Of a stretch of DNA of 61,976 nucleotides, positions 48,228 through 58,278 are shown in pieces; the first letter of the stretch is position 1, and each line of letters starts with the position of its first letter. Source of the DNA: Candidatus Bathyarchaeia archaeon (GTDB taxonomy: Archaea; Thermoproteota; Bathyarchaeia; Bathyarchaeales; Bathycorpusculaceae); contig JAVZLS010000008.1 in assembly GCA_038883715.1 (NCBI GenBank), positions 1-61,976 of the forward strand, read 5' to 3'. The position numbers were made by a program, and so were the translations under genes. The notes under the pieces were generated by a model. It was not told the origin of the DNA and searched no databases. It worked only from the letters and a program-made list of their open reading frames with translations.

Positions 48228-48305
48228 TGGTGGGGCTGCCCGGATTTGAACCGGGGTCCCGAGCGCCCGAGGCTCAGAGCCTAGACCAAGCTAGCCGACA
48301 GCCCC
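48228..48305 (-). tRNA. tRNA-Pro (CGG)
   Basis: Reverse complement GGGGCTGTCGGCTAGCTTGGTCTAGGCTCTGAGCCTCGGGCGCTCGGGACCCCGGTTCAAATCCGGGCAGCCCCACCA; anticodon CGG; CCA encoded. Confidence 0.96.
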
Positions 48306-48422
48306 TTTGGTTTACGTTGCCCATTTTTAGTTTTGTATAGGTTTAATAAAGGTGTTTTCTTAACCTTTAAACCCTTATCCGGGCTATAACTATCCAAGTG
48401 TTAGGGGGAGGCGTGGAAGACT

Positions 48423-50615
48423 TTGTCTAGTCAGCATCAGCGCCTGCGGGGAATCCGCGTTTTGAAGGCAGTTTCTTCAACTGTTAGGCTTAACATCCTA
48501 AGCGCTCTTTTCGACCATGGTCCACTTTCCTATACCGAACTTATGAGCCTTTTAAAAATGAACCCAAGTAGGGATGCTGGGCGCTTCGCCTATCACCTCA
48601 AATTTTTGCTTAAGGCGGATTTGATTGAGGCTGATGTGGAGTCTAAAAAGTATCGCCTAACAGATTTGGGAAAGATGGTTATCGACGTGGCTGAGGAAAT
48701 TGAGAAGCGAAGTTTAAGAGCCCAAAGAATCCTTGTGAGAACGTCCCGCTTCACCCTAGAAGAGTTCGATGCCACAAAAATTGCAAATTCTCTCATTAAG
48801 GAGGCTGGAATGCCCCCAGAACTCGCCCAGAAAATCGCGAAAGAGGCTGAAAAACGCCTTTTAAAGGCTAGGACCCGCTACTTAACGGCTCCGCTGATAA
48901 GAGAGGTTGTTAACGGAATCCTCATTGAAAGGGGGCTGGAGGAGCACCGCCACAAACTCACCCGTCTTGGGTTGCCAGTGCATGACGTTTCAGCCTACCT
49001 CATGAGGGGCAAAGCCACTGTCGATGCGTCTTCCATCTGCGAAGATTTTGGGAGAAATGTCCTTGAAGAGTACACGCTTTTAAGTGTGCTGCCAAGGGAC
49101 ATTGCAGACGCATACTTATCGGGTGAGATTCACCTTCACGGCTTAGGCTACTGGATTTTAAAGCCACACGAAATAATCCATGACTTAAGATTCTTCATGA
49201 AAAACGGCTTAAACCCAAACCCCGCAAACACTTTTCAACCATCCATAAAGCCACCGAAAAGTTTTGAATCCGCCCTAAACCTAACCCTCAACATTCTTCT
49301 GCAAACATCAAAGGAAACCGATGGAACACAAGTGCTTGAATACTTTAACATCTTTTTGGCCCCCTTACTGAAAGGCTTGGAAAAAGCTGCAGTCAAAGAG
49401 GCTTTGAGGCTCTTCATCATCAGCGCCAGCCACTACGTTGACGCCTCCATAAATCTCGAGTTGACAATTCCAGAGTTTTTGGCGGATAAGCCCGCCATAG
49501 GCTCGGCAGATGGCTGTTATGGCGACTATCTCAGCGAAAGCCAGCTTTTAGCCTCTCTGGTACTTGAAGTTTACGAGGAAGAAAGCGCTGAAAAGCCGCT
49601 TCTAAACCCAAAACTCATAGTTAAAATTCGCCCGGAAACTTTCAGTGACAGCGTGGCGGCGGACATTCTGTTAAGGGCACATCGCCTAGCCTCAGAGAGG
49701 GGCATCCCATACTTCGCAAACCTTTCGGGCAAAAATGGACAATACACGGTTTTCTCTCCTTCAGGAAGCGTTCTCAAAGCAGATTTCAAAGAAGACTGGG
49801 AACTTGATACACTGCGCACAGGCGTTTTGGGAATCGCAACCGTTAACTTGCCCAGAATAGTCCTCGAATGCGGCAAAGACGAAAGAAAACTTTTCACGCT
49901 TTTAAGAGAGAAGCTTGAAATGGCAGCACGAGCCCTAGAAATAAAGAACAGAGCCCTAAAACAGCGAGGAAGAAACTTTCTTCCCTTTTTGACACAATCA
50001 GCCAACGGCGACCAATACTTCAGAGTCGAAAATGCTGCACGCTTAATAAATATGGTTGGACTGAAAGAGGCTTCAGAAACCCCAAGCGGAAAAAGCTTAT
50101 ACGAAGACGAGAAAGCCCAAAGGTTCGCATCCGAAATAATAAAAAACGTTTTAGAATTCATGCCAAAAAGTGGAAAACGCGAAAGAAGACTTCTTCCATC
50201 CGCTTTGCCGTGCGCCGACGCCTCAGAAAGGTTGGCAAAACAAGACATTGAAAGATTCGGCATTGCAAAGGTTCGCTTCCAAGGAACAAGGGAAAAACCC
50301 CACTACTCATCATACAGTCGAATAAACCTCCAAAGCTGGGAGACGCAATCAAAAATTTTAGCTATTGAAAAAGGACTTTATAAGCCGCTTGTCGGCGGAA
50401 ACCTAACAGTTTTGGAGCTTGGAGAGGCCGAATACGCTTCAGAAACGCTTCTCTCATTTACCAAAAAGCTTGTTGAAGAATATAAGCTAATATTTTTTAC
50501 TTACAATCGCAACTTAACCTACTGCAGCCAATGCCGCAAAAGCTGGTTCAGAAAACTACAAAAATGTCCTATATGCGGTTCTATGAGCACGTTAACAACT
50601 TTACCGCGTTTCTAA
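48423..50615 (+). CDS. ArsR-like winged-HTH + ATP-cone + class III RNR (NrdD)-fold protein lacking catalytic motifs
   Basis: N-terminal VRLNIL..GPLSYTELM..FAYHLKFL..YRLTDLG wHTH; VRTSR..EEFD..KIANSL ATP-cone; NrdD-like core (TRLGLPV, GEIHLH, DTLRTG, TVNLPR) and C-terminal CSQC..CPICG; no R(I/V)xGY motif. Confidence 0.85.
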   Translation: MSSQHQRLRGIRVLKAVSSTVRLNILSALFDHGPLSYTELMSLLKMNPSRDAGRFAYHLKFLLKADLIEADVESKKYRLTDLGKMVIDVAEEIEKRSLRAQRILVRTSRFTLEEFDATKIANSLIKEAGMPPELAQKIAKEAEKRLLKARTRYLTAPLIREVVNGILIERGLEEHRHKLTRLGLPVHDVSAYLMRGKATVDASSICEDFGRNVLEEYTLLSVLPRDIADAYLSGEIHLHGLGYWILKPHEIIHDLRFFMKNGLNPNPANTFQPSIKPPKSFESALNLTLNILLQTSKETDGTQVLEYFNIFLAPLLKGLEKAAVKEALRLFIISASHYVDASINLELTIPEFLADKPAIGSADGCYGDYLSESQLLASLVLEVYEEESAEKPLLNPKLIVKIRPETFSDSVAADILLRAHRLASERGIPYFANLSGKNGQYTVFSPSGSVLKADFKEDWELDTLRTGVLGIATVNLPRIVLECGKDERKLFTLLREKLEMAARALEIKNRALKQRGRNFLPFLTQSANGDQYFRVENAARLINMVGLKEASETPSGKSLYEDEKAQRFASEIIKNVLEFMPKSGKRERRLLPSALPCADASERLAKQDIERFGIAKVRFQGTREKPHYSSYSRINLQSWETQSKILAIEKGLYKPLVGGNLTVLELGEAEYASETLLSFTKKLVEEYKLIFFTYNRNLTYCSQCRKSWFRKLQKCPICGSMSTLTTLPRF

Positions 50616-51367
50616 AGCATTTTCTCCAAATACTCAATATTCCTCTGAATTTCGTCTTTTCCGCATATGTTTCCATGTCCGGGAACTATCTTCTTTATTT
50701 CTAGCTCTTGAAGTTTCTGTAGGCTTTTAATCCACTGCTTCCATTCCTTTGGACCGCCAAACCTTGTAGTCGGCGGCATTCCAGCATAAAGCGTGTCTCC
50801 TACAAATAATACTTTTGAAACTTTGTGGTATACTGAAATCTCTCCGGGAACATGCCCAGGTGTATATAGTAATTCAATTTCATCTTCCTCATCTAATTTC
50901 AGAGTGAAATCTTCATCAAAAATAATGTCAGGTAACGCTAACTTAACATTTCCGAGAGTTTCCTCGATTTGTTTTACATCTTGACCTTTTGTTTTAGCAA
51001 TCTTTTTGACGATAAAGTCCTTATAGGTATCTATAACCCGCCTAAAGGTTGGCAATGTTCTGTGAAGTAAAAATTGACGCACCCATCTGTGTGCAATAAC
51101 TTTCGCGCCAGCTCCTTTAATAGCACCCATTCCAAATAAGTGATCAGAATGATTATGTGTAAGAACGAGCCATATTTCTTTGGGCTTTTTTCCAAGCTTC
51201 TCTGTTGCAGCTCTTAAAAGATATTCGCCATCCATGGCTGTCATTCCTGCATCAATGTGAACTATGAAATTTTTTGTTGTTATAAAACCTGCATTTACGC
51301 TGGCAATGGGATGGTAAAGGTTAGTGACAGCGTAGACTCCTTTGTCAAGAGTATGAATCTCATTCAT
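50612..51367 (-). CDS. MBL-fold metallo-hydrolase
   Basis: THNHSDH; TPGH; FVGD; VPGHG; AT-rich. Confidence 0.9.
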   Translation of the reverse strand: MNEIHTLDKGVYAVTNLYHPIASVNAGFITTKNFIVHIDAGMTAMDGEYLLRAATEKLGKKPKEIWLVLTHNHSDHLFGMGAIKGAGAKVIAHRWVRQFLLHRTLPTFRRVIDTYKDFIVKKIAKTKGQDVKQIEETLGNVKLALPDIIFDEDFTLKLDEEDEIELLYTPGHVPGEISVYHKVSKVLFVGDTLYAGMPPTTRFGGPKEWKQWIKSLQKLQELEIKKIVPGHGNICGKDEIQRNIEYLEKML

Positions 51368-51463: not shown

Positions 51464-52396
<933 letters not shown>

Positions 52397-52579
52397 TTAG
52401 ACAAGCAACAGGTTCTGCTTAAATAACTTTTTATCCACGTTTCGCAAGACAGAAAACTAGAGGGGGCTATCAAATTTAATGGTTCACACACTGTTAAAAT
52501 TAACTGAAAATGCCTTCTAAGCGATTAAAACCTTTTATCTCTGCGCCGACAATACCGTTTTAAGCGGTGGCTAAGCCTT

Positions 52580-53050
52580 ATGAGCGAAAGCGAAACAATG
52601 CTTTATGTTTCAAAAATTAAGGATGGAACCGTTATAGACCACATCACTGGCGGTCACGCCTTAGACGTCATCAAGATTTTGGGGATAACGGGCAAGGAGA
52701 AGCGTATAATCACCATAGCCATCAACGTTCCAAGCAAACGGTTTAAAGTTAAGGACATAGTCAAAATTGAGGGAAGAGAACTAAAACCAGAAGAGGTCCA
52801 TAAAATTGCCCTTCTGGCGCCCCATGCAACCATAAACATCATAAGAAACTATAACGTTGTCGAAAAACAGAGGGTTAAGCTTCCAAGCGTTATTGAAGGC
52901 ATTGTCAAATGTGCAAACCCCGCTTGTATAAGCAACAGCAACGAACCAGTCCAATCCAAATTTTATGTTAGAAATGAGGAACCACTGATCCTGAAGTGCC
53001 ATTATTGTGGCTATATCATGGAGAAAAACGATGTCTTAAAGCAGTTTTAG
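52580..53050 (+). CDS. pyrI: Aspartate carbamoyltransferase regulatory subunit
   Basis: IKDGTVIDHI; KDIVKIE; ATINII; CANPACISN..CHYC. Confidence 0.97.
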   Translation: MSESETMLYVSKIKDGTVIDHITGGHALDVIKILGITGKEKRIITIAINVPSKRFKVKDIVKIEGRELKPEEVHKIALLAPHATINIIRNYNVVEKQRVKLPSVIEGIVKCANPACISNSNEPVQSKFYVRNEEPLILKCHYCGYIMEKNDVLKQF

Positions 53051-53628: not shown

Positions 53629-56600
53629 ATGAGAAGAGTCATGAAATTCGTCTCAGCGCTTCTGGTTTTGATGTATGCGATGGCTTCTATAAACTGCTTT
53701 ATATATACTGTTCAAGGAGCGCCAAATGAGATCGCTGGTCTAGGATTGCCAAGAAGCCTTCAAGACTTTCTTGGGGTCAAGTTGCCATATGTAGATCCAG
53801 AATTGATCGGCATTAAAGAGTTGACAAGAGTTATATTGGTGGTTAAAGACTCTGCAGATATTAGCCAAATTGCCGGCTTTATGAAATCGTGCAGGGTGGC
53901 TCCTTCGCTTAGTGGCATACGCCTCGTTCTAGGAGTGGTTGACCCAGAAAACATGGAGTCTTTAGCGATGAATGCCTATACTTTAGCAATTTTAAAGGAC
54001 AGGGAGGTAAGCTTTGTAGGTTCTCCATATGATGCACTGCGGAGTGGAAGCTTTTTAAAGGATATGAAACCGCAGCCCAATGAAACGCCAAATGAACTAC
54101 CTACGGGGGCGCCGTCTCAAAGTGGAAGTATGAGAGAAGTTGTTGAAATAATGAATGCCACAAGCGTTTGGAGTGAGTATGAAGTCACCGGCGATGGTGT
54201 GACAATAGCGATTGTCGACACAGGTGTTGATTATGGTTCTCTTGGTTTAGGTTATTGGGATGTAATGGCGAGAGACGCGTTTGGTTATCCAGCCACCTTT
54301 GACGCTGATGCCATGTGCCTCGTATACACAAATATAACGCTCACGGCGTTTACAAATGCCAGTGGAACGTTCATACCCACAGCAGGACTTGACCCCCTCG
54401 TTTACATAATCGGCTATGTCTATCCTTATGCGGTGCTTCCTTTTTCAGAGCTTTTTGGCGAAGCTTTTCCGTCAGATATGAATGTTACAGGAATCCTGGA
54501 TGAAGGGGATGTGTGCCATTGGGGCGTAATGTTTCAGTGGCTTTTCGGTTTAGACCTATTCCCAGTATTAGTTGTGGACTCAAACACTGATAATATCTAT
54601 GACACCGTGTATGTGGATATCTCCTTTGACTGGTGCTGGATACCACAATGGTACTATCTGTGGTACGGTGGAACTTGGCCATGGTGGTCAGCTTCGTGGC
54701 CCCCAGACTACAGTTTTGCAGATGAAACGCCAATAGATGTCACTAATTCGGTTGGGGCAAGAGACTTTACAGGAGACGGCATTTATGATGTTTCTGTGAG
54801 TTCTTTAGGCTATTTCCTCGATGTTTGGGGCGCATCTCCAAACAATGATGACAGAGGACTTGTTCTTAAACCAATAGACCCAAACGGCAACTATGTATGC
54901 TTCGTCTATGACTTCTATGGGCATGGGACATCATGCGCATCATGCGCCGCTGGAAGAGACCTAGGCCATCCATTTTTCGGCAATGGAATAGCCTACGACG
55001 CAAAAATCATGGGCGTCACTGCATTATACATTGGCGATGTGATAGAAGGCGAACTTTGGGCAGCAGGATTCGACCTTACTCCAGGAACAGAGGGATGGTA
55101 TCCAATCCCCGGCTATGGCTACGCTTATGGCGTTTGGATGTACACAGGCAATCATAAGGCTGACATAATAAGTAACAGCTGGGGCTCATCCGCTTGGGCG
55201 CTGTACAGTTGGATGGAACAAGCGCCATGGTATGACGTCCTAACAATGCTTGAAGACGCCTTAACAATACCCGGATATCTAGATCTAGACTATCCTGGCA
55301 CAATAGTAGTTCATGCCGGCGGGAATGGGGGTGCAGGCTATGGAACCTTCACGGAACCCGGATATTCAACACTTGTAATAAGCGTTGGGGCATCAACATC
55401 TATGAACTGGACTTATTACTCTTTTGGCTTTGCTGGGGGCTATTATGACGAAGTAATTCCTTGGAGCGCTAGGGGCCCAACCGCCTTGGGAACAGTCAAG
55501 CCAGACGTTCTTGGGATTGGTGCTTTCGGATTTGCACCAACAGCCGTATTTCTTGGACTTGGAGACGGATTATACGCCTTCGATCTTTTTGGCGGCACTA
55601 GCATGGCTACGCCAGTTGTAGCTGGGTCTGCAGCCCTTGTTGTACAAGGATTTAGAGAAAACATCGGCTACTCTCCCACGCATGATATTGTCAAGACCGT
55701 CTTAAAATCAACAGCGGTGGACTTGGGTTACGACCCCTTCCTTCAAGGTGCAGGACGCGTGGATTGTTATAGGGCTGTTTCACTGGTCATGGGAGAAGAA
55801 GGAATAACCGTATTCTCAGACGCCACGTGGCAGAACGTCCTAGAAGCAATAAAGCTTGCCGGATGGATAAACTCCTACTTAAGTGGTGGGCTTATACCAT
55901 TGGCTACTCCGCCGCCTATAGCTGATACAAGCTGGTTTGCAGGAACCGTTAAACCGGGAGAAAATACAACTGCTGAATTTGGTGTTTATAACCCGACATC
56001 TGAAGATGTAAGCGTAAGCGTTGCTTCCGTTACCCACAAGCAAATTGGCTCCACCATAGTTTTAGAAGGTTTGACCGGAACAATGCCTGGTGATTGGGCA
56101 TCTTATGGGTGGACTTGGGGGAACATCACAAAGTTAAGCAAAAGCATGATCCCCGAAGATGCAGACTTGATGACTGTATCGCTTGTATACTCCTACGACT
56201 ATTTTGATCCGGATAGAAATTACGCTTGGAATCAGAGATTGGGCATAATGATTCAGGACTGGAATGACACCGACAATGATGGAGAAGTTGACATTGGCGA
56301 GGTTTGGCAGCTAAACTATGGATACAACTATGGAACAACCAACATAGTAACAGTTGGATTTCCATATTCCAAATTCAAAGATACACCAATAATCTTCGTC
56401 TACCAAAGATCAGCCGCAGAGTATAGTAGTATTCCATTTAAACTGTACATAAAATTCTATAAAAGAGTCCCATGGAACTGGATTCAGCTATCCCCAACAG
56501 AGTTTACAGTTCCAGCGGTTAATCAAACGATTTTCAATGCCATGTTAACCGTGCCGCCAGACACTCCGCAAGGAGTCTACGAAGGACAAATCCTCGTCAA

Positions 56601-58278
56601 TTTTAACGGCAAAAGAATTGCTATACCTGTATCCGTTAATGTGCCAGAGGTTGTTCCCAGCCAGCAACTTGTCTATGAGATTACATCTCCTCAATATGAT
56701 GGCCCATATAATCCTTTCACAGTTGAAGGCTACTTCGACTGGGGCTGGAGATACGAAGCTGGAGACTGGAAGAGCTGGCTTTTCACATTCAACGACCCAT
56801 CCACATTAGCAGCCTTCGTCTGTGCCAGCTGGGAAGGGAACATAACGGACGTGGATATGTTCAGCATACACCCAATAGGCATAATTGTAGACGGCACTGG
56901 CAATTATTGGCTGAGGAACGGTATATTCCAGTGGCACACCAGAACAAACTCAACAGAAGAGCGCGTTTTCATGTACACTGGCCTGATTCCCGATGCTCCA
57001 CCTATGCCAAACGTTTACACGGTTCTATTGCACAACGTCTTATTTGATGGCTCAACATTCCCAGAACAACTGAACTGCACCATCAGAATGATTAAGGTAA
57101 ACCCAGCGCCAATGATAAAGCTCATAGTGCCGGCTGGCGAGTCAAAGCACATAACATTCACTTTGTCCACAGGAATCAAACTTACAAACGTGTTTTTCAT
57201 GCCAGCAGGCCTAATAGAGGTTGAGCCAACCAGTGTGGAGGAAATTCCTGAAATGGGTTCTCAAACAATTAATGCCACAGTGGAAGTGCCTGCATACATG
57301 CCTCCAGATAGATATCTGACAGCCATTTATGTTATAGCATCAGAACTCCCAATGCCAATTCCAATATACATAGAAATCGACGTCCCAACCGTTGAAAGGC
57401 TAGATATACGCGTGGATGCCGGCGAAATTCATTTCTCAGGCGAGGTCGCTGACGTTTATGTACAAATTTCCCGTCAAGGAGTTCCATTTAATCTAACAGA
57501 ATCAATCCAATTGAAATTATGGTGCAGAAACGCTGCCGGAACATACCAGCAAACAAGCATATACGCGCAATTGCTAGATTCGGGGCTGTATGTGGCTGAA
57601 TTTGAGGTTCCAGTGGGAGCCACTTCATGTTGCCTAATAGTTTCCATCGACCAATATTTCGAGGACATAAACACCTTATATAGAGGAACATCCATGGACA
57701 GCTTCTCCCTAAGCCCCACATTAAACGGGTGGAACGCTTACCTACAAAGCATAAGCGGCGACATAGCTACCATAAGAACTGATATAGGAACAATAAATGT
57801 CAAGCTCAGCTCGATAAACGCTACTTTGACAGGGCTTATCATTAATAGTAAGGGAGAAATATTGGCCAACATAGCTACTGCTTTAGGCACCATTAGGACA
57901 GATTTGCAAGCAATTAACGCCACTTTAAGAAGCATCAACGGGACAACTGTTGAAATACAGACAACGCTTGGCAACGTTGCAACATCAATAAACAATATTG
58001 GTTTGAAGGCTCAACTCATCGAGGGCAATGTAACTATAATCAGAACCAGTCTAGGAGAAATAAAAGGCGTAATTGAAACAGTTGAGGATGGAGTAGCCAC
58101 CATTAAAACCGACATTGGAACCCTTAAAGTCAGCGTAAACGAAATTGAAGGCTACACAGAAAACATCCCGCAAACAACCTCTCAAAATCTCATGGTAACA
58201 TACATTGCGACAGTGTTGGCACTTATCGCAGCGGCATGTTCAGCAGCCATCCTAATCAAACTAAGAAAGAGAGCCTAA
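53629..58278 (+). CDS. Large cell-surface S8 subtilase with C-terminal repeat stalk and TM anchor
   Basis: Signal peptide; triad IVDTG / GHGTSCA / GTSMATP; SNSWG; VKPDV; QGAGRVD; C-terminal I.T.IG.I repeats, TM, KLRKRA. Confidence 0.93.
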   Translation: MRRVMKFVSALLVLMYAMASINCFIYTVQGAPNEIAGLGLPRSLQDFLGVKLPYVDPELIGIKELTRVILVVKDSADISQIAGFMKSCRVAPSLSGIRLVLGVVDPENMESLAMNAYTLAILKDREVSFVGSPYDALRSGSFLKDMKPQPNETPNELPTGAPSQSGSMREVVEIMNATSVWSEYEVTGDGVTIAIVDTGVDYGSLGLGYWDVMARDAFGYPATFDADAMCLVYTNITLTAFTNASGTFIPTAGLDPLVYIIGYVYPYAVLPFSELFGEAFPSDMNVTGILDEGDVCHWGVMFQWLFGLDLFPVLVVDSNTDNIYDTVYVDISFDWCWIPQWYYLWYGGTWPWWSASWPPDYSFADETPIDVTNSVGARDFTGDGIYDVSVSSLGYFLDVWGASPNNDDRGLVLKPIDPNGNYVCFVYDFYGHGTSCASCAAGRDLGHPFFGNGIAYDAKIMGVTALYIGDVIEGELWAAGFDLTPGTEGWYPIPGYGYAYGVWMYTGNHKADIISNSWGSSAWALYSWMEQAPWYDVLTMLEDALTIPGYLDLDYPGTIVVHAGGNGGAGYGTFTEPGYSTLVISVGASTSMNWTYYSFGFAGGYYDEVIPWSARGPTALGTVKPDVLGIGAFGFAPTAVFLGLGDGLYAFDLFGGTSMATPVVAGSAALVVQGFRENIGYSPTHDIVKTVLKSTAVDLGYDPFLQGAGRVDCYRAVSLVMGEEGITVFSDATWQNVLEAIKLAGWINSYLSGGLIPLATPPPIADTSWFAGTVKPGENTTAEFGVYNPTSEDVSVSVASVTHKQIGSTIVLEGLTGTMPGDWASYGWTWGNITKLSKSMIPEDADLMTVSLVYSYDYFDPDRNYAWNQRLGIMIQDWNDTDNDGEVDIGEVWQLNYGYNYGTTNIVTVGFPYSKFKDTPIIFVYQRSAAEYSSIPFKLYIKFYKRVPWNWIQLSPTEFTVPAVNQTIFNAMLTVPPDTPQGVYEGQILVNFNGKRIAIPVSVNVPEVVPSQQLVYEITSPQYDGPYNPFTVEGYFDWGWRYEAGDWKSWLFTFNDPSTLAAFVCASWEGNITDVDMFSIHPIGIIVDGTGNYWLRNGIFQWHTRTNSTEERVFMYTGLIPDAPPMPNVYTVLLHNVLFDGSTFPEQLNCTIRMIKVNPAPMIKLIVPAGESKHITFTLSTGIKLTNVFFMPAGLIEVEPTSVEEIPEMGSQTINATVEVPAYMPPDRYLTAIYVIASELPMPIPIYIEIDVPTVERLDIRVDAGEIHFSGEVADVYVQISRQGVPFNLTESIQLKLWCRNAAGTYQQTSIYAQLLDSGLYVAEFEVPVGATSCCLIVSIDQYFEDINTLYRGTSMDSFSLSPTLNGWNAYLQSISGDIATIRTDIGTINVKLSSINATLTGLIINSKGEILANIATALGTIRTDLQAINATLRSINGTTVEIQTTLGNVATSINNIGLKAQLIEGNVTIIRTSLGEIKGVIETVEDGVATIKTDIGTLKVSVNEIEGYTENIPQTTSQNLMVTYIATVLALIAAACSAAILIKLRKRA

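Follow-up and report, generated by a model that had tools for sequence, protein, structure and literature searches.

The window analysed here, 61,976 nucleotides of contig JAVZLS010000008.1 from a Candidatus Bathyarchaeia archaeon, carries a gene whose product joins an N-terminal winged helix-turn-helix (wHTH) of the ArsR/SmtB type to a body related to NrdD, the class III ribonucleotide reductase (RNR). We call it the wHTH gene, and its product the query. The reading frame is unbroken from a TTG start, about 10 nt upstream of which lies a Shine-Dalgarno-like GGGGGAGG run. On one side stands a divergent tRNA-Pro gene (CGG; 48228-48305, minus strand), where the sole Rfam match is a sub-threshold 'tmRNA' hit; on the other side are pyrB and pyrI, encoding aspartate carbamoyltransferase (ATCase) and its regulatory chain (Table 1).

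The modules of the protein are recognised by Pfam with unequal strength. The wHTH is matched by DUF7347 (34.5 bits, cutoff 27.6) and, over aa 21-69, by HTH_5/ArsR (26.2 bits, cutoff 22). The ATP-cone scores 27.0 bits for a cutoff of 25.8, over profile positions 3-72 of 88, and NRDD 222.7 bits over profile positions 14-532 of 562; positions 533-562 are unmatched and the C-terminal glycyl-radical part is therefore absent. The NCBIfam NrdD equivalog TIGR02487 reaches 248 bits, under its cutoff of 326.35. A family alignment of 49 sequences served to build an AlphaFold2 model (pLDDT 87.7, pTM 0.77), whose top Foldseek matches are all solved NrdDs, some with ordered cones (E 5e-26 to 2.5e-18); the first 95 residues of the model match HlyU, a regulator of the ArsR/SmtB family (3jth/4ooi/4k2e; TMt 0.72-0.76). 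The wHTH displays H-L-x-x-L, which we take to be the recognition-helix pattern of DNA-binding ArsR folds. A two-copy complex prediction for residues 1-100 (alignment A1) scored 0.22 for a mark of 0.42 and is evidence neither way. The four zinc-site cysteines are invariant in family alignment A1 and kept in 66-68 of 76 wHTH proteins. An earlier note, made from the letters of this DNA, had described an intact 730-aa frame composed of wHTH, cone, NrdD barrel and terminal CxxC..CxxC; Pfam, the model and Foldseek bear this description out.

Table 1. Features of the wHTH gene and its surroundings, in window positions
Feature	Position	Strand	Evidence or remark
Whole gene: wHTH / ATP-cone-like domain / NrdD-like barrel / Zn site	48423..50615	+	730 aa, TTG start; profiles, BLASTP, model, Foldseek
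ArsR/SmtB-like winged helix-turn-helix, aa 13-88 (DUF7347, HTH_5)	48459..48686	+	Pfam; Foldseek; dN/dS 0.01-0.08
ATP-cone-like domain, aa 105-172, VRTSR variant	48735..48938	+	Pfam; invariant columns; motif counts; dN/dS 0.07-0.10
NrdD-type barrel without catalytic residues, aa 207-723	49041..50591	+	Pfam NRDD; Foldseek; column table
HLHG, aa 237-240, replacing substrate-triphosphate motif HxHD	49131..49142	+	Alignments
Glu250 at first active-site Cys position (canonical PYC)	49170..49172	+	Cys 0/76
Ser447 at finger-loop thiyl-radical Cys position	49761..49763	+	Cys 2/76
Cys4 zinc site kept: C701, C704, C715, C718	50523..50576	+	Alignments; no glycyl-radical domain after it
Promoter region, divergent tRNA-Pro to gene	48306..48422	.	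Conserved ACCTTTAAAC TATA/BRE-like box, GGGGGAGG, inverted repeat
pyrB (aspartate carbamoyltransferase), convergent neighbour conserved in clade	51464..52390	-	TIGR00670, 400.8 bits
pyrI (ATCase regulatory chain), divergent from pyrB	52580..53050	+	Pfam PyrI, PyrI_C

Active-site residues and the ATP-cone-like domain

We compared 76 wHTH-bearing relatives with 12 catalytic NrdDs over 80 columns nearly invariant in the enzymes (MAFFT), and set the query motifs also against the canonical NrdD of the same genome (BLASTP, MAFFT). At least 80% of the wHTH proteins keep 23 of the 80 columns: seven cone and linker residues, Gly234, the NLPR strand, scaffold Gly, Glu, Arg, Asp and Tyr residues and the four zinc cysteines. 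On the other hand, 19 columns are kept by at most 10% of them. A deletion has removed the N-x-N flap that covers the active site (a gap in 69-76 of the 76 proteins), and the second His of HxHD persists in three, the query itself reading HLHG. Glu250 (KPHE in the query) occupies the place of the first active-site Cys and Ser447 that of the finger-loop thiyl Cys. The thiyl position was fixed in three ways, by HMMER, by MAFFT and by anchoring on the conserved L-x-S-x-W after the loop; the Cys of SGC[KR] found in some relatives at 60-69% identity lies two residues past it and is not conserved. Canonical AAGAQ has become TDGTQ, TPAE has become LPCA (family-wide, Ala is kept in 1 and Glu in 16 of the 76) and YTNS has become YSSY (N kept in 5, S in 3). 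The roles of HxHD, of the TPAE loop with its Glu and of the flap are known from Prevotella copri NrdD (accessible part of PMC11226230).

The C-terminus tells the same story. The query stops 11 residues past the second CxxC, and MAFFT aligns its ...LPRF* with the start of canonical YSRVVGY. Relatives at 35-46% identity carry a degenerate tail of about 37 residues, with Ser, Ala or Gly at the radical position in some; in all, the radical Gly is kept in 12 of the 76 wHTH proteins and the Tyr after it in 2. When 150 representatives of 50%-identity clusters were sorted by these two features, none of the 88 with a wHTH had the Gly-radical motif and none of the 23 with the motif had a wHTH; the remaining 39, many of them fragments, had neither. 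A separate glycyl-radical domain encoded in trans was sought elsewhere in the same genome and none was found. The alteration of all catalytic motifs claimed in the earlier note is thus confirmed against both the resident canonical NrdD and the 12 catalytic NrdDs, and comparison of sequences strongly supports the protein being a conserved, catalytically dead NrdD paralogue, a pseudoenzyme. Since orthologues lack RxxGY throughout (0/88), this is not a recent degenerate copy.

Within the family, conservation is highest in the cone with its linker, to about aa 185, and not in the barrel; the consensus of cone and linker is L-V-R-T-S-R..E.F....I...L..EA ... YLTAPLIRE..N..L.E.GLEE.RH.LTRLG.P. The query reads V-R-T-S-R where classical cones read V-x-K-R-D-G, and the cone motif, which could be located in 68 family members, is VRTS in most of them; the canonical NrdD of the same genome differs in having the classical reading VRKRDG. 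Some catalytic NrdDs share the VRTS cone and the PLIRE...TRLGLP linker, among them the enzymes encoded in tandem with the wHTH gene at loci L119 and L123. Because these tandem enzymes have the same cone and linker, the data fit an origin of the family by duplication within a VRTS-cone subclass of archaeal NrdD. Over the specificity-site stretch that contains Glu290 and Asn298 of P. copri NrdD, the query and a bridge sequence remain unaligned.

Other NrdD homologues came to light during this comparison. A group of NrdD-like proteins without wHTH (P0183, P0188, P0197, P0208, P0216, P0249 and similar ones) carries two ATP-cones, the outer with K/R-x-x-G and the inner with VRTS. Their NRDD match ends at about profile position 504-531, without Gly-radical motif, and several lack the zinc site; they may represent another non-catalytic lineage or truncated gene calls. 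Long N-termini of canonical NrdDs, considered as possible wHTH domains, turned out to hold a second cone instead. Finally, several catalytic homologues of 1000-1700 aa (such as P0169, P0172, P0174 and P0205) match the query in at least two separated stretches and end with SRITGY, consistent with inteins or other large insertions.

Distribution, selection and resident reductases

The architecture is widespread. The 120 closest listed clusters (60-100% identity) all contain the NRDD barrel, with lengths of 675-756 aa, and where named belong to Bathyarchaeia, Bathyarchaeales or Nitrososphaerota. A library search with the protein returned 1896 representatives at E<=1e-3 and 379 at E<=1e-30, named distant members belonging to Bathyarchaeota/-ia, Nitrososphaerales and Nitrososphaerota. 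Relatives are encoded on at least 571 stretches of species-representative genomes, and 196 of 301 genomes sampled across the phylum match at E<=1e-20, a threshold that leaves out the canonical NrdD of the query's own genome. In one family of small complete genomes (f12 in our numbering of family-level groups) a match exists in 43 of 43. Archaeal AmoA is encoded in all five of its complete genomes that were checked; in these five the wHTH gene is the only NRDD-domain match, and none has an NrdG activase above cutoff (best score 52 bits, cutoff 131). Among 121 genomes of the query's own class, 79 contain a match above the NrdD cutoff and 36 sub-cutoff matches only. The family persists independently of class III RNR.

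It is also under constraint. Nei-Gojobori dN/dS between close orthologues is 0.09-0.14 overall; the wHTH has the lowest values, and besides the cone with its linker (Table 1) the barrel shows 0.08-0.18 and the short zinc tail 0.12-0.31. All domains are under purifying selection, and the gene is a maintained one, not a decaying copy. An unrooted FastTree phylogeny from which the wHTH columns were left out has a branch (SH-like support 99) that separates all 76 wHTH rows, together with P0187, a gene call without N-terminus, from the rest; the wHTH proteins form a single clade of single origin. Fourteen metatranscriptome reads, 95-99% identical, map mostly within the gene in one orientation; they come from one of four RNA runs, the other three having yielded no reads and constituting no test of transcription. 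This is weak evidence that the gene, or the orthologue of a close relative, is transcribed.

The assembly (1.33 Mb, 90% complete) possesses intact reductases besides. Contig 10 carries an nrdR-nrdD-nrdG cluster (L001, 765-4086) whose products all score above cutoff: NrdD with 664 bits in Pfam and 591.6 for TIGR02487, NrdG with 190 bits for TIGR02495, and an NrdR of bacterial type, encoded directly upstream of nrdD-nrdG, with 161.8 bits for TIGR00244. An adenosylcobalamin-dependent NrdJ is encoded on contig 4 (TIGR02504, 759.5 bits). The query shares 24% identity with the canonical NrdD over 682 aa, from cone to zinc site. No NrdG gene adjoins the wHTH gene, as the earlier note had remarked, and the only above-cutoff NrdG of the genome is the one beside nrdD on contig 10. 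The pseudoenzyme proposed in that note is upheld by the family-wide loss of catalytic elements, the persistence of the family in the five AmoA genomes, the purifying selection (dN/dS below 1) and the lack of a trans glycyl-radical domain in the genome; the recurrence of the architecture in relatives and the presence of separate intact RNRs, which it suggested looking for, were both found.

Neighbouring genes and promoters

Gene order provides the strongest functional clue. Sixty loci from 25 family-level groups were scored for a panel of neighbour genes. In 34 of the 60 (17 families) a gene of nucleotide metabolism is found no more than 1.5 kb away, and in 33 of them it lies downstream. In 14 loci the wHTH gene is immediately succeeded, on its own strand and after 219-599 bp, by an RNR gene: class III nrdD in f4, f5, f9 and f38, class II nrdJ (TIGR02504 above cutoff) in f7 and f12. 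The four downstream nrdDs read TPAE, with CCR in three, YTN in three and RITGY or RVTGY in three (the L131 frame ends earlier). Among further f12 loci nrdJ starts downstream in 19 of 20, the contig of the twentieth ending first. That the downstream slot is kept while the RNR switches from class III to class II is hard to explain without a functional tie. At L130 the gene downstream is dcd (dCTP deaminase), and pyrB and/or pyrI adjoin the wHTH gene in f1, f3, f8, f11, f19, f24, f30, f31, f34 and f45.

Two observations stand beside this survey. A carbamoyltransferase encoded next to the gene in f20 and f25 was considered as PyrB and then left out of the nucleotide links, the profile being that of ornithine carbamoyltransferase; it is divergent in six of seven sampled loci. 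The f20/f25 members themselves (L134, L135, L149, L150, L152, L153) have shorter frames of about 550-625 aa with a poorly matched barrel. At L120, a glutaredoxin ORF (PF00462; 5733-6059, minus strand) separates the wHTH gene from the canonical nrdD; it recurs at L168, the L120 ORF being the one scanned. This arrangement suggests a redoxin-dependent NrdD operon downstream of the candidate regulator in L120.

In the clade of the query the neighbour is pyrB. Among the 80 closest loci compared (54-88% identity, the best 80 of at least 571), pyrB is directly downstream and convergent in all 80 and pyrI is present in 42; the upstream neighbours of the query recur in 3-6 only. At L131 the wHTH gene is followed by nrdD, nrdG and then a convergent pyrB, and together with L120, L123 and L166 this suggests an ancestral order wHTH-nrdD-pyrB. 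In the f12 family pyrB stands beside the gene in none of 20 loci. The window itself contains, between the wHTH gene and pyrB, a gene of the MBL fold (Lactamase_B; 50612-51367, minus strand) that overlaps the wHTH stop codon. It is found in none of the 80 related loci, where wHTH gene and pyrB are 15-45 bp apart, and for that reason looks like a lineage-specific insertion. Past pyrI, a 1549-aa ORF (53629-58278, plus strand), whose N-terminus resembles a signal sequence and whose C-terminus carries a hydrophobic anchor, is likewise absent from all 80.

pyrB and pyrI are transcribed divergently from a spacer of 70-192 bp (window 51464-53050 and 38 related loci); the bacterial counterpart is the familiar pyrBI operon. 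The alignment of this spacer reveals two conserved TATA-like blocks and nothing further. In the 117-bp promoter of the wHTH gene, an inverted repeat TAAAGGT-N9-ACCTTTA (48347-48369) has its only perfect copy in the genome, and its one-mismatch copies are not enriched there (12, versus 17 for a control pattern). We rejected it as an operator: it is most simply read as two divergent TATA/BRE boxes, for the gene and for tRNA-Pro, because orthologous loci without the tRNA keep one half only. The GC-rich palindromes CCCGG-N7-CCGGG upstream of 38 of 71 loci were discarded as well, being arms of tRNA. The promoter of the gene shares no word of 9 nt or longer with those of pyrBI, nrdJ (contig 4) and nrdR (contig 10).

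Promoters of downstream RNR genes in other lineages offer a lead. Between the wHTH gene and nrdJ of f12, GGTGTCAA-N5-TTGA (up to two mismatches) occurs in 15 of 23 loci where shuffles predict about 1.7 of 23, a count that is no independent test because the pattern was derived from the very sequences in which it was counted. In 14 of the 15 it lies at -86 to -97 from the nrdJ start. In the Bathyarchaeia of f4 and f5, the downstream nrdD has a ATTTTATAC box, and a similar GTGTCAATTT..GA precedes this box by about 20 nt. A GTGTCAA...TTGA type is common to f4/f5 (nrdD) and f12 (nrdJ), about 20 nt before the TATA-like box of the RNR gene; the nrdJ promoters of f7 carry TCTACA-TTTT-TGTAGA instead. 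All three boxes are placed about 10-25 nt before a TATA-like box, and they were seen at L097-L116, L136 and L174-176; L119 and L166-168; L121 and L169. In the query's own genome, one intergenic TGTCAA-N3-5-TTGA is located on contig 7 (51669-51682), 49 nt upstream of a 335-aa ORF starting MSQLPCTVIVGGFWGDEGKGK; judging from its motif, this ORF may encode an adenylosuccinate synthetase.

Interpretation and relation to known systems

We consider it probable, at roughly 60%, that the protein is an NrdD paralogue without catalytic activity that binds DNA and regulates genes of nucleotide metabolism, in a way analogous to bacterial NrdR. The NrdD scaffold (cone, barrel and zinc site) has been retained, what radical chemistry and the binding of substrate require is gone, and a wHTH of the ArsR type has been added at the N-terminus. 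The former enzyme body would then serve as a dimerising, effector-sensing module: the NrdD-type dimer would hold a pair of wHTH domains, these would bind DNA, and an effector lodged at the cone and/or the former specificity site would alter this binding. Because of the ancestry and the neighbour genes, the effector is most plausibly a nucleotide. Candidate targets would be nrdD or nrdJ and dcd in other lineages, and possibly pyrB/pyrI in this clade. The loss of catalysis, the purifying selection, the single clade, the wide distribution and the gene-order linkage are observed; that the protein binds DNA and dimerises, what kind of effector it has and which genes it targets is what we infer from them. 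The earlier note had gone in the same direction. Its transcription regulator has indirect support from the ArsR-type wHTH and from the recurrent RNR, dcd and pyrBI neighbours, and no operator was found for the gene; its retained allosteric modules hold insofar as cone and linker are the best conserved part, less so as the phosphate-binding Lys-Arg pair has changed.

Several observations weigh against this proposal. The classical basic pair of the beta-hairpin is replaced by Thr107-Ser108 in the query cone, and in P. copri NrdD it is Lys7/Arg8 of the cone that contact dATP, according to the accessible part of PMC11226230. In the double-cone proteins VRTS is always the inner cone, the outer one keeping K/R-x-x-G, and Burnim et al. 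(bioRxiv 10.1101/2022.04.23.489257, in the portion accessible) report one class Ia RNR whose inner cone has lost the ability to bind ligand. The cone is clearly important, yet its binding of ATP or dATP in the classical manner cannot be assumed; the old active site, with its degenerate substrate motifs, is for that reason unlikely to bind NTPs as before. Gene order has its gaps too. There is no panel gene near the wHTH gene in 26 of the 60 loci and 8 of the 25 families (f2, f16, f18 in 8/8, f20, f25, f33, f37, f41 and one f9 locus), and the divergent neighbour of f20/f25 is the ornithine carbamoyltransferase gene. In the present genome the gene adjoins no RNR, and a bona fide NrdR is also encoded. 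pyrB is convergent with the wHTH gene, which therefore excludes co-transcription. Its proximity may moreover be a relic left by loss of the tandem nrdD, and so at least partly historical, because wHTH-nrdD-pyrB loci minus nrdD would give the arrangement of the window. As to promoters, no operator could be defined for the wHTH gene from its own and orthologous promoters, and the f12 element suffers from the circularity mentioned above. In the own genome, TGTCAA-N3-5-TTGA is barely enriched, with 23 matches, mostly coding, for 9-16 in five shuffles; two copies are intergenic and none lies at RNR or pyr promoters.

Some of these facts could be read differently. The protein might be a regulator dedicated to pyrimidines in this clade, sensing pyrimidine nucleotides and acting on pyrB/pyrI, with RNR adjacency elsewhere reflecting ancestry. 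The constancy of pyrB in the 80 closest loci despite variable upstream neighbours speaks for it, as do the adjoining pyrB and/or pyrI of ten families, even where the pyrB/pyrI order is inverted, and the fact that the nrdDG cluster of this genome already has its NrdR. We nevertheless hold it to be rather unlikely: the convergent pyrB has no promoter element in common with the gene, tandem nrdD loss as envisaged from L120, L123, L131 and L166 accounts for the adjacency, and f12 shows none of it. Alternatively, the protein could act without touching DNA, as a regulatory or scaffolding subunit binding RNR or ATCase, its wHTH serving protein contacts. NrdD is a dimer with cross-talk between monomers (accessible part of PMC11226230), the barrel is under purifying selection and the gene sits beside RNR genes. 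However, its partner would need to be a class III RNR in some lineages and a class II RNR in others, the family is present where NrdD is absent, and the wHTH, the most constrained domain, matches DNA-binding ArsR/HlyU folds; such a role is unlikely.

That the protein is still an enzyme, with its radical on another residue, with a radical domain supplied in trans or with a non-radical nucleotide chemistry, seems very improbable. Glycyl-radical homologues with Ala, Ser or Thr in place of Gly can form radicals, as the accessible part of PMC11528403 reports, and some distant wHTH relatives with the degenerate tail would offer Ser, Ala or Gly there; in a few relatives, moreover, a Cys is found two residues past the thiyl position. 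Against this, the query is tail-less, the thiyl Cys (2/76) and first Cys (0/76) are gone, the flap has been lost, HxHD, TPAE and YTNS have degenerated, no radical domain in trans was found in the genome and none of the five AmoA genomes has an activase above cutoff. Ammonia oxidisers, besides, live aerobically. Under such a life these radicals would be destroyed, in line with the oxygen sensitivity described in the accessible part of PMC2795772. Lastly, the gene could be taken for an NrdD pseudogene that lost its activity recently and owes its N-terminal extension to chance, and most source records do label these proteins simply anaerobic ribonucleoside-triphosphate reductase. This reading is refuted by a dN/dS of about 0.1, by the conservation of the architecture (120 of 120 listed close clusters, 88 of 150 representatives) and by its wide distribution (196 of 301 genomes).

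Returning to the DNA-binding regulator of nucleotide-metabolism genes, a broader version can be put forward tentatively, as possible though somewhat doubtful. The family would be what archaea have been missing as an equivalent of NrdR: derived from an entire dead NrdD, it would act in Bathyarchaeia and in the Nitrososphaerota that oxidise ammonia as the master regulator of how (deoxy)nucleotides are supplied. Its body would still read the nucleotide pool via the cone and/or the specificity site and set binding of the wHTH at nrdD, nrdJ, dcd and pyrBI promoters, possibly via the GTGTCAA...TTGA box upstream of RNR genes of two classes.

Such a regulator would matter for several reasons. RNR sets the supply and balance of DNA precursors, and AmoA-encoding ammonia oxidisers are a group with cultured members, so that a bench test of the hypothesis is feasible. 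With about two thirds of the sampled phylum genomes encoding it, the family is a testable candidate for archaeal RNR gene control; if the proposal is true, it would also be an unusually complete case of an essential radical enzyme recycled as a sensor. Meanwhile, the reductase label would wrongly credit class III RNR, and hence anaerobic dNTP synthesis, to organisms that do not have it. NrdR, the ATP-cone repressor of RNR genes, 'is rare in archaea' according to the accessible part of PMC9110341.

A wHTH-fused or catalytically dead NrdD or an RNR-derived wHTH regulator was not found described in the open full-text literature searched, subscription journals lying outside it, and DUF7347 is not mentioned among the literature matches listed. 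Neither is a wHTH-fused or catalytically dead NrdD described in the accessible parts of PMC3019208, PMC2795772, PMC13450708, PMC9110341, PMC4390871 and bioRxiv 10.1101/2022.04.23.489257.

Measured by the features that define known systems, the query fails the tests of catalytic NrdD and of NrdR, passes that of an ArsR-type wHTH and passes that of the ATP-cone marginally. With class III NrdD it shares a homologous cone, barrel and Cys4 zinc site (24% identity, NRDD profile, Foldseek E of 5e-26). It differs by the lack of glycyl-radical domain, thiyl Cys, second Cys and N-x-N flap and by its degenerate substrate motifs; it also scores below the equivalog cutoff and has an added N-terminal wHTH, and its family occurs without activase. 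With bacterial NrdR it has in common a DNA-binding-type module followed by an ATP-cone, a gene that in other lineages is often placed beside RNR genes and, by analogy, a proposed logic linking nucleotide state to RNR gene transcription (for NrdR, PMC9110341). NrdR however uses a Zn-ribbon where the query has a wHTH, and the query carries a whole dead RNR body and a cone without Lys-Arg; no NrdR model is among the 14 NCBIfam families listed for it at E up to 1. The RNR adjacency typical of NrdR, seen in 14 of 60 loci and in 19 of 20 further f12 loci, is not that of the query's clade, where pyrB takes its place in 80 of 80.

ArsR/SmtB regulators such as HlyU correspond to the query in wHTH fold and profile matches. 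ArsR proteins are stand-alone dimers of about 100 residues that sense metals or redox state, whereas the wHTH of the query makes up the first 100 residues of a 730-residue protein. In MocR/GabR, an aminotransferase-like domain is joined to a wHTH. Fold and pathway differ from those of the query, but the concept would be the same, that of an enzyme fold serving, without its ancestral reaction, as sensor of a wHTH regulator. Enzyme-derived sensors on wHTH regulators are thus already known, and what would be new here is one derived from a ribonucleotide reductase.

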